Assembly: GCA_964570325.1 (NCBI GenBank)
Contig: CAZMXS010000002.1
Span: 17,398-81,397, forward strand
DNA length: 64,000 bases
Reading direction: 5' to 3'
From: an uncultured Verrucomicrobiota bacterium
Lineage (GTDB): Bacteria; Verrucomicrobiota; Kiritimatiellia; CAIQIC01; CAZMXS01
Shown here: positions 1,499 to 57,930 of the stretch, piece by piece
How positions within the stretch are numbered: position 1 is the stretch's first letter
How the letters are laid out: every line of letters begins with the position of its first letter
The notes under the pieces: model-generated
What the model saw: the letters and a program-made list of their open reading frames with translations, nothing else
The model's database searches: none
What the model was told of the DNA's origin: nothing
Translations under genes and position numbers: made by a program

Positions 1499-4400
1499 TT
1501 ATAGTTCCGGCAATTTTTTCTGCTCCGGCAACGTGTCGGGCAACAGTTCCTCCGCCGGGATCTCCTTGGCCAGCGGCACCAGCTTGATATTTCGGTACAT
1601 CCCGAAACCGGTGCCCGCCGGGATCACGTGCCCCATGATCACGTTCTCCTTGAATCCGCGCAAGTAGTCCACGCGGCCCAAGGTCGCGGCATCGGTCAGA
1701 ACCCGCGTGGTGTCCTGGAACGACGCCGCGGAAATGAAACTTTCGGTCTCGAGCGAGGCTTTGGTGATACCCAGCAGCACCGGCGACGCCTCCGCCGGCA
1801 GCTTGCCTTCGGCCGCGGCCCGCTGGTTGACATCCTGGAACAGATGCTTTTCGACCTGCTCGCCCCAGAGAAATTCCGTGCCGCCGGGTTCGGTGATGCG
1901 GACCTTGCGGAGCATCTGGCGCACGATAATCTCGATGTGCTTGTCGTTGATCTCGACGCCCTGCAGCCGGTAGACCTCCTGCACCTCGTTGACCAGGTAC
2001 TCTTGCAATTCCTGCGGACCGCACACCTCCAACACCTCCTGCGGCACCACCGGACCCTCCGTCAACGCCTGCCCCTTCTTGACATGGTCGCCCTGGAAAA
2101 CCACCACATGCTTGCCCATCGGGATCAGGTGCTCTTCCTGGTCGCCGGTCGCCGGATCCTTGACGATCAGCTTGCGCCGACCGCGCACCATCCCGCCGGT
2201 CTCGACTACGCCCTCGATCTTCGCGATCTCGGCTGCGTCCTTCGGTCGGCGCGCCTCGAACAACTCGGCCACCCGGGGCAGACCGCCGGTGATGTCCTTC
2301 GTCCGGATAACCTTGCGCGGCGTCTTGGCCAGCATTGCGCCGGCGCGAACTTCCGCGCCCTTCGCCACCGTTACGTGCGCGCCGGACGGGATCGTGTAAT
2401 AACTGATAATCTCGCGCGTTTTCGGATCCCTGAGCACAATCTGGGGATGCAAGTCCTCCTTGTGCTCCATAACCACCGTGCCTTCGAGCCCGGTGGACTC
2501 GTCCACGTCTTTCTTGACCGTGACCCCCTCGATAAAGTCGTGGAATTCAATAATGCCGGACTGCTCGGAAAGGATCGGCACGTTGTATGGATCCCAGCGG
2601 ACAAAGCTCTGTCCCTTCTCCACCTGGCCGCCATCGGGCACCGAGATCACTGCGCCAATCGGGGTCGTGTAATGCTCCAGTTCACGCCCTTCCTTATCGA
2701 AGACGCCAATCACGCCATTCTTGTTGAGCGCGATGAAGCTGCCCTCCTGGGACTCGACCACGCGCAGATCCTGGTAGCGCACCACGCCATTGTGCTTGGC
2801 AATGAACTGCGGCTGCTTATAGACCGAACTCGCGGTGCCGCCGATGTGGAACGTGCGCATCGTTAATTGGGTGCCCGGCTCGCCAATGGACTGCGCCGCG
2901 ATGATGCCGACGGCCTCGCCCAGCGCGACCGTGCGGCCGTTTGCCAGGTTGCGCCCGTAGCACTTCGCGCAGGCGCCGCGCCGCGATTCGCAGGTCAGCA
3001 CGCTGCGGATGCGCAGGCTCTCGAAATTGCCCTTGATACGTTCCACGGCCTTTTCGTCAATCTCCTGCCCCGCGACGACAATGATCTCGCCGTTGCGCGG
3101 ATCCTTAATGTCGTCCAACGCCGTCCGGCCGAGAATGCGCGCGGCCAGCGGCACCAGTTCGTCATCCCCCTCCTGGATCGGACGAACCTCAATGCCGTTT
3201 AACGTGTTGCAATCCTGTTCAATAATGATCACGTCCTGCGCCACGTCCACCAACTTGCGCGTAAGATAGCCGGAGTCGGCTGTCTTCAGCGCGGTGTCGG
3301 CCAGGCCCTTGCGGGCGCCATGCGTACTGATGAAGTACTCCAGCACGGTCAGGCCCTCGCGGAAATTCGAGATGATCGGGCGCTCGATAATTTCGCCCGA
3401 CGGCTTGGCCATCAGCCCGCGCATACCGCCCAACTGGCGAATCTGCTGGCGGCTGCCACGCGCGCCAGAGTCCACCATCATGAAGACGGGGTTGACATCC
3501 TCGCGGCCCGCATTGAATTCCAGCGCGCGGAACATCGCGCTGGAGATTTCGTCATTCACGTGCGTCCAGATGTCCACAATCTTGTTGTAACGCTCGCCGT
3601 CGGTGATCACGCCCTTGCGGTACTGCAGCTCGACGTCCGCAATCTGCTTGTGGCCCTGCTCGATGATCCGGGATTTCTCGTCGGGAATGATCATGTCGTC
3701 CACGCCAATCGAGATGCCGGCCAGGGTCGCGTATTCGAACCCGAGGGCCTTGAGCCGGTCCAGCACGCGGACGGTCTCATCATGTCCCGCCACTTGGTAA
3801 CAGCGCCAGATCAACTCCTCCAGACGCTTCTTGGTAACCGGAATGTTGACAAAGGGCATGCGCGGCAGGGGTTTTTCGCCGGCCAATTCCAACGCGCGGG
3901 CCGCCGCCCCCTGCGGGGTCTCCAGCGGCGTCAGCGTTCCCGGCCAGATCTCATTGAAAAAGACGCGACCCACGGTCGTCGTGATCACGCGCGGCCGGCC
4001 GGCCACGCGCTCGGGATCCCGCTGCCGCTCATACTCATAGTCGGGATCGCGGAAACGGATTCGGTCATGCACGCGCAGCGCCCCCTCGTCGTAGGCCGTA
4101 TGCACCTCGGCTGCGTCGCGCAGAATAGGCAGATGTTCCAGCGACTTCTCGTCCGCTTTCGACTGCCGCTGGCGAATCCGGTCGCGCTGCGATTCGATCG
4201 TCAGGTAGTAGCAGCCCAGCGCGATGTCCTGCGTCGGAGTCGTAATGGGTTTGCCACTGGACGGCGAGAAGATATTGTTCGGCGCCAGCATCAGCAGGCG
4301 CGATTCGAGCTGGGCCTCGACCGACAGCGGCACATGCACAGCCATCTGGTCGCCGTCGAAGTCCGCGTTATAGGCGGTGCAGACCAGCGGGTGGATCCGG

Positions 4401-50229: not shown

Positions 50230-51357
50230 TTATACCGCCGGCGCTTGCGGTTTGGTGTCTTTGGCCCCGCCGGCTGCGTGATGCAACTCCCGGCTCCGGG
50301 CTTTGACCCGCTCCTCGATCTTCTGCAGCAGCTCGGTATCGTGCTTGAGATTCTCGCAGGCGGAGTCCCGCCCCTGCCCGAGCTGCTGGCCCTCAAACGA
50401 TAGCCACGTGCCGCGCTTTTCCAGCAAGCCCAAATCGGTCGCGGCGTCAATAATCGCGCCAGTGCGCGAAATGCCTTCGGCGTATAGAATATCGAACTCC
50501 GCCTCGGTAAACGGCGGAGCCATCTTGTTTTTGACGACCTTGACCTTCGTCCGATTGCCGATCACCTTGCCGGCCGGATCCTTGATCGCGGCCAGGCGCC
50601 GGATATCGAGCCGGACCGAAGCGTAGAATTTCAGCGCGCGCCCCCCCGGCGTTGTCTCGGGGTTGCCGAACATCACACCAATCTTCTCGCGGATTTGGTT
50701 CGTGAAAATACAGCAGGTCTTGGACTTGTTCAGGATGCCCGTCAGCTTGCGCATCGCCTGGGACATCAGGCGCGCCTGGAGGCCGACATGCGAGTCGCCC
50801 ATCTGCCCCTCAAGTTCAGCGCGCGGCGCAAGCGCGGCGACGGAGTCAATCACCACCACGTCGAGCGAATTGCTGCGGACAAGCTGGTCGGCGATGGTCA
50901 ACGCCTCCTCGCCCGAGTCCGGTTGAGAGACCAGCAAGTCGTCGAGGTTGACGCCGATCTTCTTGGCATAGGCAGGATCGAGCGCATGCTCGGTATCAAT
51001 GAACGCGGCCATGCCGCCGGCCCGCTGGGCATTGGCAATGATATGCAGAACGAGCGTGGTTTTCCCGGACGATTCAGGACCAAAAATCTCGATGATGCGG
51101 CCACGCGGCACGCCGCCGATACCGAGCGCGTTGTCCAACGTCAACGCGCCGGTTGGAATGCAGGGAACGCTGACCATGGCCTCCTCGGAGCCCAGCCGCA
51201 TGATCGCGCCATCGCCGAACTCCTTTTGAATCTGGGCCAGAACCGCGCTCAACGCGGCCGGCAGTTTCTTCTCCTGCTTTTCCATCTTCTCCGTCTTTTC
51301 GATCTTTTCCACCTTGTCGGCCTCTGCTTTCGCGGCCGGCTGTGTTTTCGGCGCCAT
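50230..51357 (-). CDS. recA: recombinase RecA
   Basis: [10 protein letters not shown]...[33 protein letters not shown]...; Lys/Glu-rich N-terminal extension, so the true start could be the internal MEKQEKK. Confidence 0.95.
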
Positions 51358-51361
51358 AGGA

Positions 51362-51970
51362 TCAAGCTCCTTTCAAGAGCGATTCATGCAATACTGTGTA
51401 TCGGACTCCCTGCGGATCCAGGTGACTCTGCATCAACCGGACCTCCCCCACCCGGGTCACTCCAAAGCGCGCATTTGTAGCGGAGGCTATCCGGGATGTC
51501 AATGCGTCGGCCCCGCGGCTGGCGCGCACACGGCCCAGCGTCAGGTGCGGTGTAAACGGACGCGAATCCACCATGAGTCCCAACTCGCGCACGGATGCCC
51601 GCACGCGCTCGTGGAGTCCGGTCAGGGCGCCGGTGGGATCCTCGATCCCGGCCCAAAGCACCTTCGGGGCGCGCGGCGAACCGAAAAAACCGGCGCCCAC
51701 TACCGTGTAATCGAATGGCGGCACAGCGGTGCCCGCCGCATCCAGCGCGGCCGCCAGGTCCGGCACGCGCGCGGCGAACACCGCCCCAAGAAACACCAGC
51801 GTGATGTGCAAGTTGGCAGGCTGGACCCAACTGACACGGGCCGGCGTCTGCCGCCAGGCACGCACGAGTTCGCCCAGGCTGCGGCGCACCGGCTCGGCAA
51901 CCGGGACGGCGATAAAAAGCCGCAGCACGGTGTCCGGCGCGAGCGGCAAACTGGACTGAACCGTTGACAC
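51362..51970 (-). CDS. thpR: RNA 2',3'-cyclic phosphodiesterase (2H phosphoesterase, ThpR/LigT)
   Basis: Two H-x-T-x motifs ([10 protein letters not shown] and [10 protein letters not shown]). Confidence 0.7.
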
Positions 51971-51975
51971 GAGTT

Positions 51976-53205
51976 TCAGCCTTCCAATAAACGTCGCCGT
52001 AATAGATCCAATGCGAACTGAACAGTCCAGTCCCGGATTCGCGCGCGCGCGCCGGTGAATTGATGACGCCGCGCCACGGTCGCTTGCGCATCGGCCACGG
52101 CGAGATAAACCAGCCCCACCGGTTTGTCCACGGTTCCACCGCCAGGTCCGGCGATCCCGGTAACGGCCACGCCGTAATCCGCGCCGAAGCGTTCCCGCAC
52201 GCCTACCGCCATGGCGCGCGCCGTCTCTTCGCTAACCGCGCCGCAACGCGCGATCAGATCAGGCGCCACTCCCAACTCGCGAATCTTCACGGTATTGGAA
52301 TACGCAATAACACCACCCGGATAATAAAGCGAACTGCCGGCGGCGGCCGTCAAGCGTCCACCCAGCAATCCGCCGGTGCAGGATTCGGCGGTGGCCACCG
52401 TGGCGCGCCGCTCCGCGAGCAGGCGGCCGACCACCACCTCCATCTCCGCGCCATCCTCGGAATAAATGCACGCGCCCAACACGCGCCGCACATCCGCGGC
52501 GGCGCGCGCCAGCGCATCGGCGTCGGACGTAGCCAGGCGCACCTCGACCCGGCCGGTCATGGCGCAATACGCCACCTCCATGCCGGGCCGGGGAAAGCCC
52601 TCAACCTCCAGCCGGGCGCCGATGTCAGACTCGCCCAGGCCGCAGACCAGGAACCGCTGCTCGCGGGGCGGCGTCACGCCGAGCGCCTGCGCGCGCAACC
52701 ACGGCAAAACGTGCTCGGTCAGAACCGCGCTGAACTCCTGGGGCGGGCCGGGTAAGATGAAGAGGGTCTTGGCGCCGAAGTTCAGGCGTTCGCCCGGCGC
52801 CATGCCGGCCGAATTGGGCAAGACCACGGCGCCTTCCAATACCAACGCCTGGCGCTCCGAGACGGGAGCAAGCTCGCGCCCCAGGCGGCGGTATTTGATC
52901 CGCATCTGCTCCAGCGAATCACGGTCCAATATAATGCCCCGGTTCAGCACGCGGGCAACCGCGTCGCGAGTAACATCATCGCTCGTGGGACCCAGCCCGC
53001 CGCTCACCACCACATAATCCACTCGCGCCAGCGCGCCGCGCACCGCTTCGGCAATCGCGTCCAAATCGTCCGGCACGGTCGTGTCGCGCGCCAGTCGGAA
53101 ACCCAGCATACGGAGCTGGCCGCCAAGCGTCTGGGCGTGGCTGTTGAGCGTGCTCCCGTTCAACAACTCGGCGCCGGTGGAAACCAGTTCAACCGCTGGA
53201 TTCAT
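51976..53205 (-). CDS. cinA: competence/damage-inducible protein CinA (MoCF-binding domain + NMN deamidase PncC domain)
   Basis: Internal start MNPAVELVSTGAELLNGSTLNSHAQ...; C-terminal CinA domain ATAESCTGGLLG; the cinA-thpR-recA order matches the common cinA-recA linkage. Confidence 0.8.
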   Translation of the reverse strand: MNPAVELVSTGAELLNGSTLNSHAQTLGGQLRMLGFRLARDTTVPDDLDAIAEAVRGALARVDYVVVSGGLGPTSDDVTRDAVARVLNRGIILDRDSLEQMRIKYRRLGRELAPVSERQALVLEGAVVLPNSAGMAPGERLNFGAKTLFILPGPPQEFSAVLTEHVLPWLRAQALGVTPPREQRFLVCGLGESDIGARLEVEGFPRPGMEVAYCAMTGRVEVRLATSDADALARAAADVRRVLGACIYSEDGAEMEVVVGRLLAERRATVATAESCTGGLLGGRLTAAAGSSLYYPGGVIAYSNTVKIRELGVAPDLIARCGAVSEETARAMAVGVRERFGADYGVAVTGIAGPGGGTVDKPVGLVYLAVADAQATVARRHQFTGARARIRDWTVQFALDLLRRRLLEG

Positions 53206-54173
53206 GAGCGGTAGCCGCGGGGGTGCGCCTGGTGCCAGCGCCATGCATGCTGCACAATGGTGCGCAGGTCGGAAAATTCGGGGTTCCAACCAAGCGTCCG
53301 CCGGGCCTTTTCGGCGGCAGCCACCAAGCGAGCGGGATCGCCGGGCCGGCGCGGCGCCAGAACCACCGGAATCGGATGCCCGGTGACTTCGCGGCAGACC
53401 TGGACCACTTCCTGGACTGAGCAGCCCGTGCCGGTGCCAAGGTTGAACGGACCGGTCACCTCCCGCTCCAGCGCCAAAATGTGCGCGCGGGCCAGGTCCA
53501 CAATATGGATGTAATCGCGGATGCAGGTGCCATCCGGTGTATCGTAATCGGTTCCGAAGATTTGCACGTGCGGGGCCTGACCCAGCGCCACTTTCAGCAC
53601 ATTGGGGATCAGGTGGGTTTCAGGGTCGTGGTCCTCGCCAAATTGTTCGGTGGCGCCGCAGGCATTGAAATAGCGCAGGAATACCGGGCACAGGTCCGCG
53701 CGCTCCATCATCCAAATCAGGATCTTTTCCAGCATCAGCTTGGATGAGCCATAGGGATTGGTGGGATGCTGCGGGACATCCTCCGTCATCGGGATCTTTT
53801 CCGGCTGCCCGTAGGTCGCGCAGGTGGAAGAGAAAATGATCTTCTTCACGCCGGTCGCGCGCATGGCCTCCACCAGATGAATGCCACCTTCGACATTGTT
53901 GCGGTAGTACAGCAACGGATCCTGCATGGACTCGCCCACCAGGGCATAGGCGGCGAAATGCATCACCGCGTCAGGCTTGATTGCCCGCATGACATCCGCG
54001 ATCGGGCCGCGGTCGCGCAGGTCGCCACAGACCAGGCGCGCGCGCCGGTCCACCGCCTCGGGGTGGCCGCGTTCGAGATTGTCGAAAACCACCACTTCAT
54101 GGCCGCCGTTGAGCAGCAGTTCAGTGGTCACGCTGCCAATGTAGCCGGAACCGCCGGTAAGCAATATTTTCAT
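53202..54173 (-). CDS. galE: UDP-glucose 4-epimerase
   Basis: MKILLTGGSGYIGSVTTELLLNGGHEVVVFDNL...; catalytic YGSSK; 323 aa. Confidence 0.9.
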   Translation of the reverse strand: MKILLTGGSGYIGSVTTELLLNGGHEVVVFDNLERGHPEAVDRRARLVCGDLRDRGPIADVMRAIKPDAVMHFAAYALVGESMQDPLLYYRNNVEGGIHLVEAMRATGVKKIIFSSTCATYGQPEKIPMTEDVPQHPTNPYGSSKLMLEKILIWMMERADLCPVFLRYFNACGATEQFGEDHDPETHLIPNVLKVALGQAPHVQIFGTDYDTPDGTCIRDYIHIVDLARAHILALEREVTGPFNLGTGTGCSVQEVVQVCREVTGHPIPVVLAPRRPGDPARLVAAAEKARRTLGWNPEFSDLRTIVQHAWRWHQAHPRGYRS

Positions 54174-54228
54174 GGGCGCGGATGGTAGCGCCGGGCCGGG
54201 TGACAGGCCAGTGAAAAGAAGCGGTGGG

Positions 54229-54714
54229 TCAAGGCGGCGGCGCGGCGGAATCGGGCGGCTCGCTTTCGCCCTTGTCGGGATTCTCGGAGGCCGCCTGTTC
54301 CAGGGCCCAGGTCATATCTTCAGCTTGATCCCAGACCTTGCGGGCCACAAAGATCGGGCACCGCTGCTGTAGCGCAATTGCAATCGAGTCGCTGGGGCGC
54401 GCATCAATCTCAATAAAATTACGGCCGGCATCCCCCGTCTGCAGCAGGAACAGGCGGGCAAAGAACGTGTCATCCTTCAGATCATTGACCACGACTTTCT
54501 GCACCTTGACCCCCAGACCGGCGAAAATCTGGGCGATGAGGTCATGTGTCAACGGCCGCGGCTTTTTGATGCCATGCAGGAACATGGTGATGGCGGCCGC
54601 GACGCTGTGATCAACAAAGATGGCAATGGTTTTGGCGCCGTGTCCGAGAAAAACACCACACCCGGTGGGGGTGGGGACCAAGCCTTTTATCTGGACGGGA
54701 ACATCGGCTTCCAT
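54229..54714 (-). CDS. bifunctional-nuclease-domain (DUF151/BFN) protein
   Basis: Internal start MEADVPVQIKGLVPTPTGCGVFLGHGAKTIAIFVDHSVAAAITMFLHG...RPLTHDLIAQIFAGLGVKVQKVVVNDLKDDTFFARL...ARPSDSIAIAL matches the DUF151 consensus. Confidence 0.6.
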   Translation of the reverse strand: MEADVPVQIKGLVPTPTGCGVFLGHGAKTIAIFVDHSVAAAITMFLHGIKKPRPLTHDLIAQIFAGLGVKVQKVVVNDLKDDTFFARLFLLQTGDAGRNFIEIDARPSDSIAIALQQRCPIFVARKVWDQAEDMTWALEQAASENPDKGESEPPDSAAPPP

Positions 54715-54715
54715 G

Positions 54716-54811
54716 TCACATGTCGCGGGTGACGAAATACACCGAACAGAAGATGAAAACAATCATGGCTCCGGATGTCAGCGACGACCAACTCAGCCCT
54801 ATAAAACCCAT
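54716..54811 (-). CDS. small hydrophobic peptide, 31 aa (paralog 1 of 3): MGFIGLSWSSLTSGAMIVFIFCSVYFVTRDM
   Basis: Minus-strand ATG at 54811 to TGA at 54716-54718; one predicted TM helix; the stop is 1 nt from the BFN start (ATGTGACATGG); paralogous to the next two ORFs. Confidence 0.5.
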   Translation of the reverse strand: MGFIGLSWSSLTSGAMIVFIFCSVYFVTRDM

Positions 54812-54826
54812 GTCCACAAAAGCAGA

Positions 54827-54922
54827 TTACATGTTTCTGGTAACATAGAAAACCATAAAAAATATAAAAAGGATCAACGAGCCTGACGATAAAGTGGACC
54901 AGCTAATGCCGACAAATTCCAT
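54827..54922 (-). CDS. small hydrophobic peptide, 31 aa (paralog 2 of 3): MEFVGISWSTLSSGSLILFIFFMVFYVTRNM
   Basis: AAGGA Shine-Dalgarno 7 nt upstream of the ATG (54922); ~35% GC; differs from paralogs mostly at synonymous positions. Confidence 0.55.
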   Translation of the reverse strand: MEFVGISWSTLSSGSLILFIFFMVFYVTRNM

Positions 54923-54940
54923 GATGATTCCTTGGGCGCG

Positions 54941-55015
54941 CTACATGTTACGGGTGACGTAGAATACCATGAAGAAAATGAAAAGGATCATCCCGCCTGA
55001 CAGAAATGTTTCCAT
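54941..55015 (-). CDS. small hydrophobic peptide, 24 aa (paralog 3 of 3): METFLSGGMILFIFFMVFYVTRNM
   Basis: ATG at 55015 lies 10 nt downstream of a -10-like TATATT (apparently leaderless); C-terminal 16 aa identical to paralog 2 despite different codons. Confidence 0.5.
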   Translation of the reverse strand: METFLSGGMILFIFFMVFYVTRNM

Positions 55016-55025
55016 TGCGATATTT

Positions 55026-55054
55026 AATATACCCCGCCGACCAATTCCGGTCAA
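55026..55054 (-). promoter_or_regulatory. sigma70-like promoter (-35 TTGACC, 17-nt spacer, -10 TATATT) driving the small-peptide triplet
   Basis: Minus-strand sequence TTGACCggaattggtcggcggggTATATTaaatatcgcaATG; the -10 end to ATG distance of 10 nt implies a leaderless or near-leaderless transcript. Confidence 0.4.
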
Positions 55055-55088
55055 AGGCAAGTTACCAGCAGACAGCCATCAGTAAACG

Positions 55089-55109
55089 GTAATCAGCAAT
55101 CAGTGATCG
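55089..55109. repeat. heptamer tract TAATCAG CAATCAG TGATCGG
   Basis: Three 7-nt units about 35-55 nt upstream of the predicted -35 of the peptide-operon promoter; same unit family as 33766 and 34242. Confidence 0.4.
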
Positions 55110-55290
55110 GCGCCTGGCCCGACGGTTGAGAAGGCGTAAAACCAACGCTGAATGAGGGCGCGCATACGCTCGCCGGCATACGGGTCGTTAAGGAACAAGT
55201 TGATGGTTGAAGCGGGCCAGCCGCCCGCGCTCCATGTTCAGTTTCAAGAAACAGCGTCCCGACCACTGCGCGCCGATTACCGGCCCCAAC

Positions 55291-57930
55291 TCACGCCCCC
55301 TTCTTCCGGTGAATGGCCTTGAACGTCAATTCATTTGGCTGCCGGGAGTCCAAATCCACGCGGATCTGATCGCCTTCGCGGACTTCGCCTTTGAGAATTT
55401 CAGTGGCCAGCGCGTCCAATATGCGGCGCTGGATCACCCGTTTGAGAGGACGCGCGCCAAAGGCGGGATCGTAGCCTTCGTTCGCCAGAAAATTCTTGGC
55501 GGCATCGGTCAGCTCCAGCGTCACCTGTTTTTCATCGAGATACTGGCCAACCCGCTGGAGCTGGATTTCCACGATCCGCTGGAGCTGTTCGCGGCTGAGG
55601 CTGTGGAAGATAATGATTTCGTCTATCCGGTTGAGAAACTCCGGCCGGAAATGAGCTCGTAACGCCTCGGTTACGCGCGCTTCCATCTGCTCGTAGGCGG
55701 AACTGTCGCGGGCCAGGTCGGGATTGCGCTCCAGGGTTTCCTGGATGATCGGACCGCCGATGTTCGAGGTCATAATCACCAGCGTGTTCTTGAAGTCCAC
55801 CGTCCGCCCCTGCCCATCGGTCAACCGCCCGTCATCGAGGATTTGCAGCAAAACATTGAATACTTCAGCATGCGCCTTCTCGATCTCGTCGAACAGTACG
55901 ACCGAATATGGTTTGCGGCGCACATGCTCGGTCAGGTACCCGCCTTCTTCATAGCCGACGTATCCCGGCGGCGCGCCAATCAGGCGGCTGACCGCGTGCT
56001 TTTCCATGAACTCGGACATGTCAATCCGAATCAGCGCGTGCTCATCGTCGAATAAAAATTCGGCCAGCGCGCGAGCCAGTTCGGTTTTGCCGACACCGGT
56101 CGGCCCCAGGAAAATAAAGGAACCGATCGGCCGGTTCGGATCCTGCAGGCCCGAGCGAGCGCGCCGGACCGCGGCGGCGACGGCGGCGACCGCCTCGTCC
56201 TGGCCGACAACACGCCGGCGCAGCCGCTCCTCCATCTGCAACAGCTTGTCTTTCTCGCTCTCCAAAAGCCGGCTGACGGGAATATGCGTCCACGCCGCGA
56301 CCACGTCGGCGATATCCTCCGGATCCACCTCCTCCTTGAGCATCCGCTGGTTCTTCTGCAAGGTGGCAAGTTTTTTCTGGGCGGCCTGAATCTGCTGTTC
56401 CGCTCGGGGAACCTGCCCATACATGATTTCCGCGGCGCGCTCCAACCGGCCCTCGCGTTTGGCGGTCTCGCCCTCATTCCGCAACGCATCCAGCGCCTCG
56501 GTCTGGCGCGCGAGTTCCGTGATCAATTCTTTCTCCTGCCGCCAATGCAATTTCATTACGCGGCTGCGCTCTTTCAGATCAGCCAGTTCCGCCTCCAATT
56601 TGGCAAGCCGCTCGCGCGAAGCCGCGTCCTTCTCCTTGCGCAGCGCCTGGCGCTCGATCTCCAGTTGCATGACACGGCGCTCAACCTCGTCAATCTCGGT
56701 CGGCAAACTGTCAATCTCCATCCGCAGCCGGCTGGCGGCCTCGTCCACCAGGTCAATCGCCTTGTCCGGCAGAAAACGATCCGTGATGTAGCGGTGGGCG
56801 AGCTTGGCGGCCTCGACCAGCGCCGCATCCTGAATCCGAACGCCGTGATGTGCCTCGTAGCGCTCGCGCAAGCCGCGCAGGATGGCAATCGTGGCCTCGA
56901 CGCTCGGCTCGTCCACCATCACCGGCTGAAAACGCCGCTCCAGCGCGGCGTCTTTTTCGATGTATTTCCGGTATTCGTCCAGGGTCGTGGCGCCGATGCA
57001 ACGCAATTCGCCGCGCGCCAGCGGCGGCTTGATCATGTTCGAAGCATCCACCGCACCCTCGGCGCGCCCGGCGCCAACGAGCGTATGCAATTCGTCAATG
57101 AAAAGAATGATCCGTCCCTGGGACTCAATCACCTCCTTGATAAAAGCCTTGAAGCGATCCTCGAACTCCCCGCGATATTTTGCGCCCGCGAGCATCGCGC
57201 CCAGGTCCATTGAGACGACCTGCTTGTTCTTCAATCCATCGGGAACGTCCCCGGCAACAACCCGTTGGGCCAGCCCTTCGGCGATCGCCGTCTTGCCAAC
57301 GCCGGGCTCGCCAATGAGCACCGGGTTGTTTTTCGTGCGCCGGGAAAGCACTTGGATCACACGACGGATTTCCCCATCGCGGCCGATAACGGGATCCAGC
57401 TTGCCGCTGCGCGCGGCGGCCGTCAGGTCGCGGCCGTATTTCTTGAGGGTCTCATACTTGTCTTCGGGCGCCGGATCGGTCACCCGCTGGCCGCCGCGCA
57501 CAGACTGAAGCGCCTTGAGCACGGCATCAGCGCGCAGCCCCAAGCGCTGGGCAATTCGGTGGAAATCCGAATCCTTCTGTTCCAGCGCGGCCAGCAATAG
57601 ATGTTCCGTGCTGACGTACTCATCCTTCATCTTTTCGGAGAGGTTGAAAGCCTCGTCCAACACCTGGCGCAACGCGCGCGACGGGTAGCGTTCAGCGGCG
57701 GAACCCGCCACGGTGGCGCGGTTCTTCAGCGCCGTCTCGAGTTCAGCCTTCAACTGCTCACGGGCAACGCCGAGACGTTGCAGCAGCGGGACGACCACGC
57801 CATCGTCCTGATCCAGCAAGGCCAGCATCAGATGCTCGACATCCATCTCGCCGTGGCCGGCCTGAGCCGCCAGGCGCTGGGCCTGCTGCAGGGCCTCCTG
57901 TGATTTAAGGGTCAAGCGGTCCAATTGCAT
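55291..57930 (-). CDS. clpB: ATP-dependent chaperone ClpB
   Basis: 879 aa; two AAA+ modules ([17 protein letters not shown]; [16 protein letters not shown]); long middle coiled coil; N-terminal Clp_N repeats. Confidence 0.95.

Follow-up and report, generated by a model that had tools for sequence, protein, structure and literature searches.

Three mini-genes between clpB and a BFN-domain gene in an uncultured Verrucomicrobiota bacterium: probable paralogues from an undescribed family of single-helix small membrane proteins

What is encoded in the short interval that separates clpB from the BFN-domain (DUF151) gene in an uncultured bacterium of the Verrucomicrobiota, class Kiritimatiellia? The stretch of DNA analysed, referred to here as the window, comprises 64,000 nucleotides (nt) of contig CAZMXS010000002.1 (assembly GCA_964570325.1, positions 17,398 to 81,397), and an initial annotation, produced by a model from the letters alone, had pointed out three co-oriented mini-open reading frames (mini-ORFs) on the minus strand of this interval. 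When the minus strand of positions 54400-55400 was read again and all ORFs of at least 20 amino acids (aa) were listed, the coordinates and translations of the trio, which is located between clpB and the BFN-domain gene, were reproduced exactly (copies 1 to 3 in Table 1). The results described below show that these ORFs are genes, and make it quite probable that they are paralogues belonging to a so far undescribed family of small membrane proteins with 24 residues and a single helix, encoded in an operon with BFN and coupled to it.

The three ORFs are true coding sequences, whose peptides are maintained by purifying selection. The copies have a nucleotide identity of only 60–79%, and the synonymous differences between them, of which the initial annotation gave an example at codon level that proved correct, account for a proportion (pS) of 0.70 to about 1, versus 0.09–0.22 for non-synonymous differences (pN); copy 1 and copy 2 give a pS of 0.70 and a pN of 0.09, copy 2 and copy 3 a pS of about 1 and a pN of 0.22, all of these values being uncorrected, with pS close to saturation. 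Tandem Repeats Finder detected no DNA repeat with the period of the ORFs and, given this result and the low DNA identity, the repeat exists at the protein level. A profile trained on orthologues from elsewhere, with both 31-aa copies outside the training set, was run on the six frames of all the loci compared in this study and of the whole 64-kb window. It matched copy 2 (E = 3.5e-11) and copy 3 (E = 9.5e-09), and made exactly three matches in the window and nothing else. In 23 orthologues, length is fixed at 24 codons with no insertions or deletions (indels), third codon positions are the most variable (entropy of 0.65, 0.50 and 1.27 at positions 1, 2 and 3, respectively), and mean pS is 0.66 versus a pN of 0.25 (253 pairs); the frame is intact, at exactly 24 codons, in 30 unique homologues. 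Copies 1 and 2 do not adjoin BFN and are nevertheless constrained, so selection acts on the product, and the saturation of synonymous sites together with a low pN indicates that the copies are old and that each is held by selection on its peptide. The profile matches to orthologues and the pS and pN values thus bear out the initial description of unannotated, translated-looking genes under purifying selection, and the conservation of the peptide in related genomes, a lack of which had been named as an argument against this description, favours coding. A comparison of positions 53000-57000 with Rfam gave no match at E <= 1, and RNA folding found the region to be no more structured than shuffled sequence (z = +1.37). 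An RNA element, considered as a candidate, was ruled out on these two grounds.

No described family accounts for the peptides, as the initial annotation had proposed and as the absence of a match in Pfam, NCBIfam, PADLOC, PDB and Rfam now supports. Profiles from the first four of these gave no significant match to the peptides, and the best sub-threshold matches (MNSV_P7B, CcoM and ZorB, each with E = 0.012, and cytochrome oxidase IIa, with E = 2.1) look like hydrophobic-helix noise. An exhaustive HMMER search of 1.84 billion representative proteins returned only three unnamed 24-aa family members from the Joint Genome Institute (JGI) and one spurious repeat protein; the idea that the peptides are fragments of a larger protein was excluded by this search. 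The window peptides are absent from a collection of 15 billion proteins, and a full-text search of the literature on five signature strings returned nothing. The public gene calls for the species miss the three genes, and a 42-aa antisense ORF, probably an annotation artefact, has been called over copies 2 and 3 (54720-54848 on the plus strand of the window; 959-1087 in L094, 1170-1298 in L095 and 2867-2995 in L096 and L097).

The distribution of the family was established by comparing 80 genomic loci with BFN relatives, of which the 29 closest (61–78% BFN identity) make up the Kiritimatiellia-clade set; they come from metagenome-assembled genomes labelled Kiritimatiellia, Lentisphaerae, Verrucomicrobiota or Planctomycetes-Verrucomicrobia-Chlamydiae (PVC). 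A regular expression for the exact FYVTRNM-type tail found no match in the relatives; the tail of the family, Y-[YW]-I-T-[RKQ]-[DG]-M, was recognised after small hydrophobic ORFs upstream of BFN had been listed, most of the close loci having one such ORF of 24 codons (e.g. METIASAGLIIFIFFMVYYITRGM). Copy 1 is 42–67% identical to the 24-aa orthologues. In 22 of the 29 close loci, the profile picked out exactly one 24-codon homologue, which in every case immediately precedes BFN and shares its strand; the 51 BFN loci of Prosthecobacter, Acidobacteria and other groups gave no match, and the region ahead of BFN in other phyla yielded no analogous hydrophobic mini-ORF. When metagenome contigs were scanned with the peptide alignment as the only seed, 11 loci were obtained, with BFN as the next gene in all 11 and clpB preceding the peptide gene in 10 (the other locus, L081, gave no clpB match, although its upstream flank exceeds 1.3 kb); in the four of these loci where tblastn detected galE, this gene comes after BFN. 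The peptide gene is linked to the BFN gene, and the family is found here only in a Kiritimatiellia-centred clade of the PVC group. In a neighbour-joining tree of BFN, peptide-bearing loci occupy the basal branch and are spread over the whole clade, the peptide being absent independently at least four times, and this distribution indicates that the gene is ancestral to the clade and has occasionally been lost. The peptide gene is, then, apparently vertically inherited, syntenic and single-copy across the clade. Throughout the clade, the genes follow one another in the same order, clpB, (peptide), BFN, galE, cinA (window; L082-L091, L098).

At two loci, L102 (236-643) and L103 (JGI Ga0643556_000483 and Ga0643557_137058), a 335-nt, 99.7%-identical segment of galE lies ahead of the peptide gene. 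It consists of the galE upstream region and the first 97 codons, creating an in-frame GalE(1-97)::peptide ORF (P0001), which was the sole return of a protein homologue search with eight concatenated peptides. Either a segmental duplication of recent date or an assembly artefact close to the contig end would explain this segment.

The triplication is specific to one lineage and is not a trait of the family. Tandem multiplication, on which the initial annotation drew for its analogy with type I toxins, does not characterise the family: every relative examined has one 24-aa copy, and three copies, together with the 31-aa forms and their 7-residue N-terminal extension (…VGISWST…), are seen only in the species of the window. 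A search of 5.8 billion proteins found no BFN relative between 80% and 99% identity; the next relatives are at 80% identity or less, and the nearest ones retrieved carry a single 24-aa copy. Contigs with an identical BFN protein belong to the same species and are identical over the peptide region, apart from a spacer indel of 14 nt in one of them, and being so nearly identical they provide no population-level information. This indel (AGCGTATGCGCGCC), in the clpB-peptide spacer at about 55146-55159 (minus strand), is the sole difference from L093 over 600 nt. All three copies lie in a single reading frame (54716-55015, minus strand), which would occur by chance about 1 time in 9, and consecutive copies are separated by a single TAG (54941-54943) or TAA (54827-54829) and by 6 and 5 sense codons, respectively. 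Copy 3 has a GTG two codons upstream of its start, which could give a form of 33 aa.

The properties of the peptide are those of a membrane helix. Its hydrophobic core extends approximately from residue 4 to residue 20, with a mean Kyte-Doolittle value of 2.1–2.35 for the best 17 residues. Among 30 unique 24-mers, S6 and I13 are invariant and T21 is nearly so, and the C-terminal I-T-R-x-M is conserved in the family. Residue conservation has a periodicity of 100 degrees (moment of 5.84 vs 1.1–2.1 at other angles; permutation p = 0.0004), and AlphaFold2 models the 31-aa form (copy 2) as a single helix over residues 2-30, with a predicted local distance difference test score of 87. Purifying selection and a helical pattern of conservation are, thus, found together with a hydrophobic helix spanning 17 residues or more, as in small membrane proteins, and the peptides are predicted from these features to form a family of small single-helix proteins located in the membrane. 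The one conserved face of the helix (S6, I13, V17, I20/T21) would give it the look of a membrane helix packing against a partner. The only charged residues of the 24-mer are an acidic residue at position 2 and an arginine or lysine at position 22, from which the positive-inside rule weakly suggests a cytoplasmic C-terminus.

Transcription probably starts very close to the first peptide gene. The promoter scan identified 3 sites in the region, versus 1.0 +/- 1.1 in shuffled sequences, and the position of the sigma-70-like promoter listed in Table 1 suggests that the mRNA would be leaderless for this gene or would have a leader of 4 nt or less. The initial annotation was right about the TTGACC-17-TATATT element and its leaderless geometry, which has comparative support, although it is not shared by the whole family. 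In 29 unique orthologous upstream regions, TAnnnT hexamers cluster 6–10 nt and 16–20 nt from the ATG, and TTGAC clusters 36–39 nt upstream of it; a leaderless geometry without a Shine-Dalgarno sequence (-10-like hexamer at 6–10 nt or TTGAC at 36–39 nt) is found at 11 of these 29 loci, the window included. In other orthologues, the leader measures about 20 nt and contains GGTGA, GGAG or AAGG, and in a few relatives the ATG of the peptide gene comes just 6 nt after the clpB stop codon. The AAGGA Shine-Dalgarno sequence described for copy 2 is present, 6 nt before the ATG.

The guanine plus cytosine (GC) content of copies 1, 2 and 3 is 0.42, 0.37 and 0.49, respectively, and that of the window is 0.62; the peptide genes are indeed below the window in GC content, as initially reported, but the value of 0.65 given for the window was too high. 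The deficit sits in codon positions 1 and 2, in keeping with peptides in which Phe, Ile, Tyr and Met abound. At third positions, the GC content of copies 1 and 3 (0.67 and 0.68) is close to that of neighbouring genes (0.70–0.77), and that of copy 2 is 0.52. The dip in GC can therefore be put down to amino-acid composition, and it does not point to foreign DNA. Copy 2 also uses the rare codons AGA (0 of 117 Arg codons in clpB, galE and BFN taken together) and ATA (4 of 79 Ile codons). Translation of this copy may be slow or poor, or codon selection on it may be relaxed.

The peptide gene is not only linked to BFN but probably also coupled to it in translation. The distance from the peptide stop codon to the BFN start is between -4 and 63 nt over 22 orthologues (23 nt or less in 14, 41–63 nt in 8), and 1 nt in the window. 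Several of the orthologous BFN starts have no Shine-Dalgarno sequence, although some of those at the loci with gaps of 41–63 nt do have one, and no Shine-Dalgarno sequence of its own was seen for BFN in the window. These short stop-to-start gaps, together with the frequent absence of a Shine-Dalgarno sequence, suggest that BFN is probably translated by coupling to the peptide, and no terminator was predicted between the peptide genes and BFN. A terminator-like hairpin with a T-run (CACCCCCACCGGGTG TGGTGTTTTT) is present inside the BFN coding region, at 54654-54673 (minus strand) over the conserved PTPTGCGVFL motif, and its coincidence with coding sequence is probably fortuitous.

Table 1. Coordinates of the peptide genes, their signals and the neighbouring genes in the window.
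Feature	Position	Strand	Details
Peptide gene copy 1	54941..55015	(-)	24 aa, METFLSGGMILFIFFMVFYVTRNM; ancestral-type form
Peptide gene copy 2	54827..54922	(-)	31 aa, MEFVGISWSTLSSGSLILFIFFMVFYVTRNM; 7-residue N-terminal extension
Peptide gene copy 3	54716..54811	(-)	31 aa, MGFIGLSWSSLTSGAMIVFIFCSVYFVTRDM; TGA stop 1 nt ahead of the BFN ATG
Sigma-70-like promoter, TTGACC-17-TATATT	55026..55054	(-)	10/12 consensus match; ends 10 nt before the ATG at 55015
AAGGA Shine-Dalgarno sequence of copy 2	54929..54933	(-)	6 nt before the ATG; read from the sequence
BFN-domain (DUF151) gene	54229..54714	(-)	161 aa; PF02577, E = 2.6e-31
clpB	55291..57930	(-)	Conserved upstream neighbour; 275-nt spacer in the window
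galE	53202-54173	(-)	Gene calls and Pfam families on identical contig L092
cinA	51976-53205	(-)	Gene calls and Pfam families on identical contig L092
thpR/LigT	51362-51970	(-)	Gene calls and Pfam families on identical contig L092
recA	50230-51357	(-)	Gene calls and Pfam families on identical contig L092

The co-oriented genes downstream of BFN together span 50230..54173 on the minus strand. The initial annotation had correctly recognised ClpB, BFN, CinA, LigT/ThpR and RecA among the neighbours, but had omitted galE, which lies between BFN and cinA.

The following sequence of events would be consistent with these observations. In the ancestral state, a single copy between clpB and BFN would be the first cistron of an operon comprising the peptide gene, BFN, galE, cinA, thpR and recA. 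Transcription would start from a sigma-70-type promoter near the ATG, giving a leaderless or nearly leaderless message here and in roughly one relative in three; elsewhere, the gene would have a short leader with a Shine-Dalgarno sequence or would follow clpB at a distance of 6 nt. Translation of BFN would be coupled to that of the peptide through the proximity of stop and start codons. The released peptide would be too short for co-translational targeting and would be inserted post-translationally into the cytoplasmic membrane, its basic or polar C-terminal T-R-[D/G/N]-M probably facing the cytoplasm, and it would pack against a partner helix via the conserved face formed by S6, I13, V17 and I20/T21. 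In the lineage of the window, an ancient triplication has taken place, two of the copies have gained the 7-residue N-terminal extension, and purifying selection keeps all three.

A functional partnership between the peptide and BFN is possible, although doubtful. Still less probable, and at present speculative, is the idea that stand-alone BFN/DUF151 has its own partner or switch in the membrane, namely the peptide, which would tether or gate BFN there and whose translation would set the output of BFN. If this were the case, the state of the membrane would be tied to the clpB-BFN-recA string of stress genes, and the three diverged paralogues of this species would form a hetero-oligomer with altered properties. 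The DUF151 protein Cor/Rv1829 of M. tuberculosis is without nuclease activity (PMC3870250), and plant UVR-DUF151 proteins were trapped on CLPC1 (PMC8889267). The conservation of clpB-BFN adjacency in the clade is noteworthy beside this trapping of plant DUF151-UVR proteins, and by analogy a general link between BFN and Hsp100 proteins may exist.

Several observations weigh against a small membrane protein that is both operonic with and coupled to BFN, or against a partnership of the two. Seven of the 29 related genomes keep BFN without the peptide, so BFN is not strictly dependent on it, and in two of the peptide-less relatives (L001 and L023, upstream of position 4001) clpB abuts BFN directly. 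The BFN proteins of the clade are soluble, with acidic tails, and the operon encodes no membrane protein that would be an obvious partner. No fusion of the peptide with BFN was found among the 15 longest homologues checked, which leaves a physical partnership without Rosetta-stone support. The argument concerning topology is based on one basic residue, and the argument from selection makes use of the uncorrected pN and nearly saturated pS values given above.

Other explanations can be proposed for the same data. The peptide gene might be a cis-acting upstream ORF or leader peptide whose role is to load or gate ribosomes for the BFN (and downstream recA) message; it might work by sensing through the nascent chain, and the released peptide would have no function of its own. 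Its length would suit such a role, as TnaC also has 24 codons, and so would the invariance of this length, the conserved C-terminal I-T-R-x-M and the position of the gene as first cistron directly behind the promoter; however, conservation follows the 100-degree helical period, with the conservative hydrophobic exchanges typical of a membrane helix, and copies 1 and 2, which are away from BFN, are still constrained (pN of 0.09 vs pS of 0.70). For 14 of the 22 orthologues, the distance between the stop codon and the BFN start is -4 to 23 nt, and a Shine-Dalgarno sequence is missing ahead of several BFN starts, as expected if ribosomes were handed over, but the gap is 41–63 nt in the other 8, with a BFN Shine-Dalgarno sequence in some. 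There is, moreover, neither room for nor prediction of an alternative terminator/antiterminator, and no excess of structure, and a purely regulatory role therefore seems improbable.

The initial annotation preferred an analogy with type I toxins, in which membrane-depolarising peptides would be present in tandem, as for ldr, ibs and zor, possibly SOS-linked like tisB and dinQ, and controlled by antisense RNA. The small size and high hydrophobicity of these single-helix peptides, their three tandem copies in this genome and the presence of recA in the same gene string are compatible with this analogy, which is nevertheless contradicted by the synteny of the gene, by its distribution, which follows the BFN tree, and by the architecture of the transcript. 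Over a clade in which BFN is 61–78% identical to that of the window, the gene occurs once per genome in a syntenic position, apparently through vertical inheritance; as the opening cistron of an operon, it follows a near-consensus promoter and is probably coupled to the conserved gene after it; its 5' region is unstructured (z = +1.37), with a leaderless or short-leader geometry; and the only promoter-like site on the plus strand (54997-55024; 9/12 matches) would direct transcription away from the ORFs. No PADLOC match was obtained. As regards an SOS link, there are 18 matches to TGTTC-N4-GAACA with at most 2 mismatches in the window, versus 17.8 expected, and none at the promoter, this being the LexA motif of Verrucomicrobia (PMC4951493), which may not be that of Kiritimatiellia. 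The type I toxin explanation is, accordingly, considered very improbable. Read-through of the stop codons, yielding one protein of about 97 aa with three helices, would make sense of the shared frame (a chance of about 1 in 9) and of the single stop codon between consecutive copies. It seems less probable still, given that the relatives have a single 24-aa gene ending in TGA, TAG or TAA, that copy 2 has a Shine-Dalgarno sequence and an ATG of its own, and that the neighbouring genes use normal stops; efficient double read-through is, to our knowledge, without precedent in bacteria using code 11. Secreted bacteriocin-like peptides, also suggested initially, have only small size and hydrophobicity in their favour; the peptides carry neither a leader nor a double-glycine motif, and immunity and transporter genes are lacking among neighbours encoding ClpB, BFN, GalE, CinA, ThpR and RecA. 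Nothing favours non-coding repeats or chance ORFs, which are at odds with a frame of 24 codons kept intact in 30 unique homologues and with the greater variability of third positions. The probability of either of these last two readings is practically negligible.

The finding has several consequences. A poorly studied phylum gains a small-protein family that is well supported and had not been named before, and the locus provides a concrete example of annotation failure, in which real genes were missed and a spurious 42-aa antisense ORF was called. The tight link between the peptide and BFN/DUF151 is a testable handle on a widespread domain, and on the expression of an operon that ends with recA. 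The triplication, with its saturated synonymous divergence, offers a natural experiment, on a small scale, on how paralogues of a 24-residue protein are retained.

Small single-pass membrane proteins include KdpF, CydX, AcrZ, MgtS and YohP in E. coli and Prli42 in Listeria. Such proteins have 20–50 aa and one hydrophobic helix, are usually missed by gene callers and are often encoded by the first or last cistron of an operon, and several of them pack a helix face against a larger partner. The peptides described here resemble proteins of the KdpF/CydX/AcrZ type in having a short single hydrophobic helix, in being under purifying selection and in having been missed by gene callers. They differ from these proteins in having no similarity in Pfam, NCBIfam or PDB, in having been found only in a Kiritimatiellia-centred clade, and in that the BFN partner is soluble and no membrane complex is encoded nearby. 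With the type I toxins TisB, DinQ, Ldr, Ibs, ZorO and ShoB they share size, hydrophobicity and, in this genome only, tandem copies. Type I toxins are patchy, strain-variable and often multi-copy, whereas the peptide family has one copy at the same locus, congruent with the tree with few losses; conserved synteny, apparently vertical inheritance, probable coupling to the downstream gene, an unstructured leader and the absence of a detected antisense promoter over the ORFs also set it apart from them. Leader and arrest peptides (TnaC, with 24 aa, SecM, MifM and the Erm leaders) are similar in that a short ORF of fixed length and with a conserved C-terminus lies directly upstream of a gene to which it is probably coupled, but the conservation observed here is helical and hydrophobic rather than of the kind expected for tunnel contacts, non-adjacent copies are conserved and no attenuator structure is present. 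The excerpts consulted of the reports on Cor (PMC3870250) and on plant UVR-DUF151 proteins (PMC8889267) do not mention an upstream small membrane peptide. The BFN protein of this clade is a stand-alone DUF151 protein, like Cor/Rv1829 of M. tuberculosis (PMC3870250), and its gene lies beside a Clp/Hsp100 gene (clpB) across the clade, an arrangement that can be compared with the reported trapping of plant UVR-DUF151 proteins on CLPC1 (PMC8889267).

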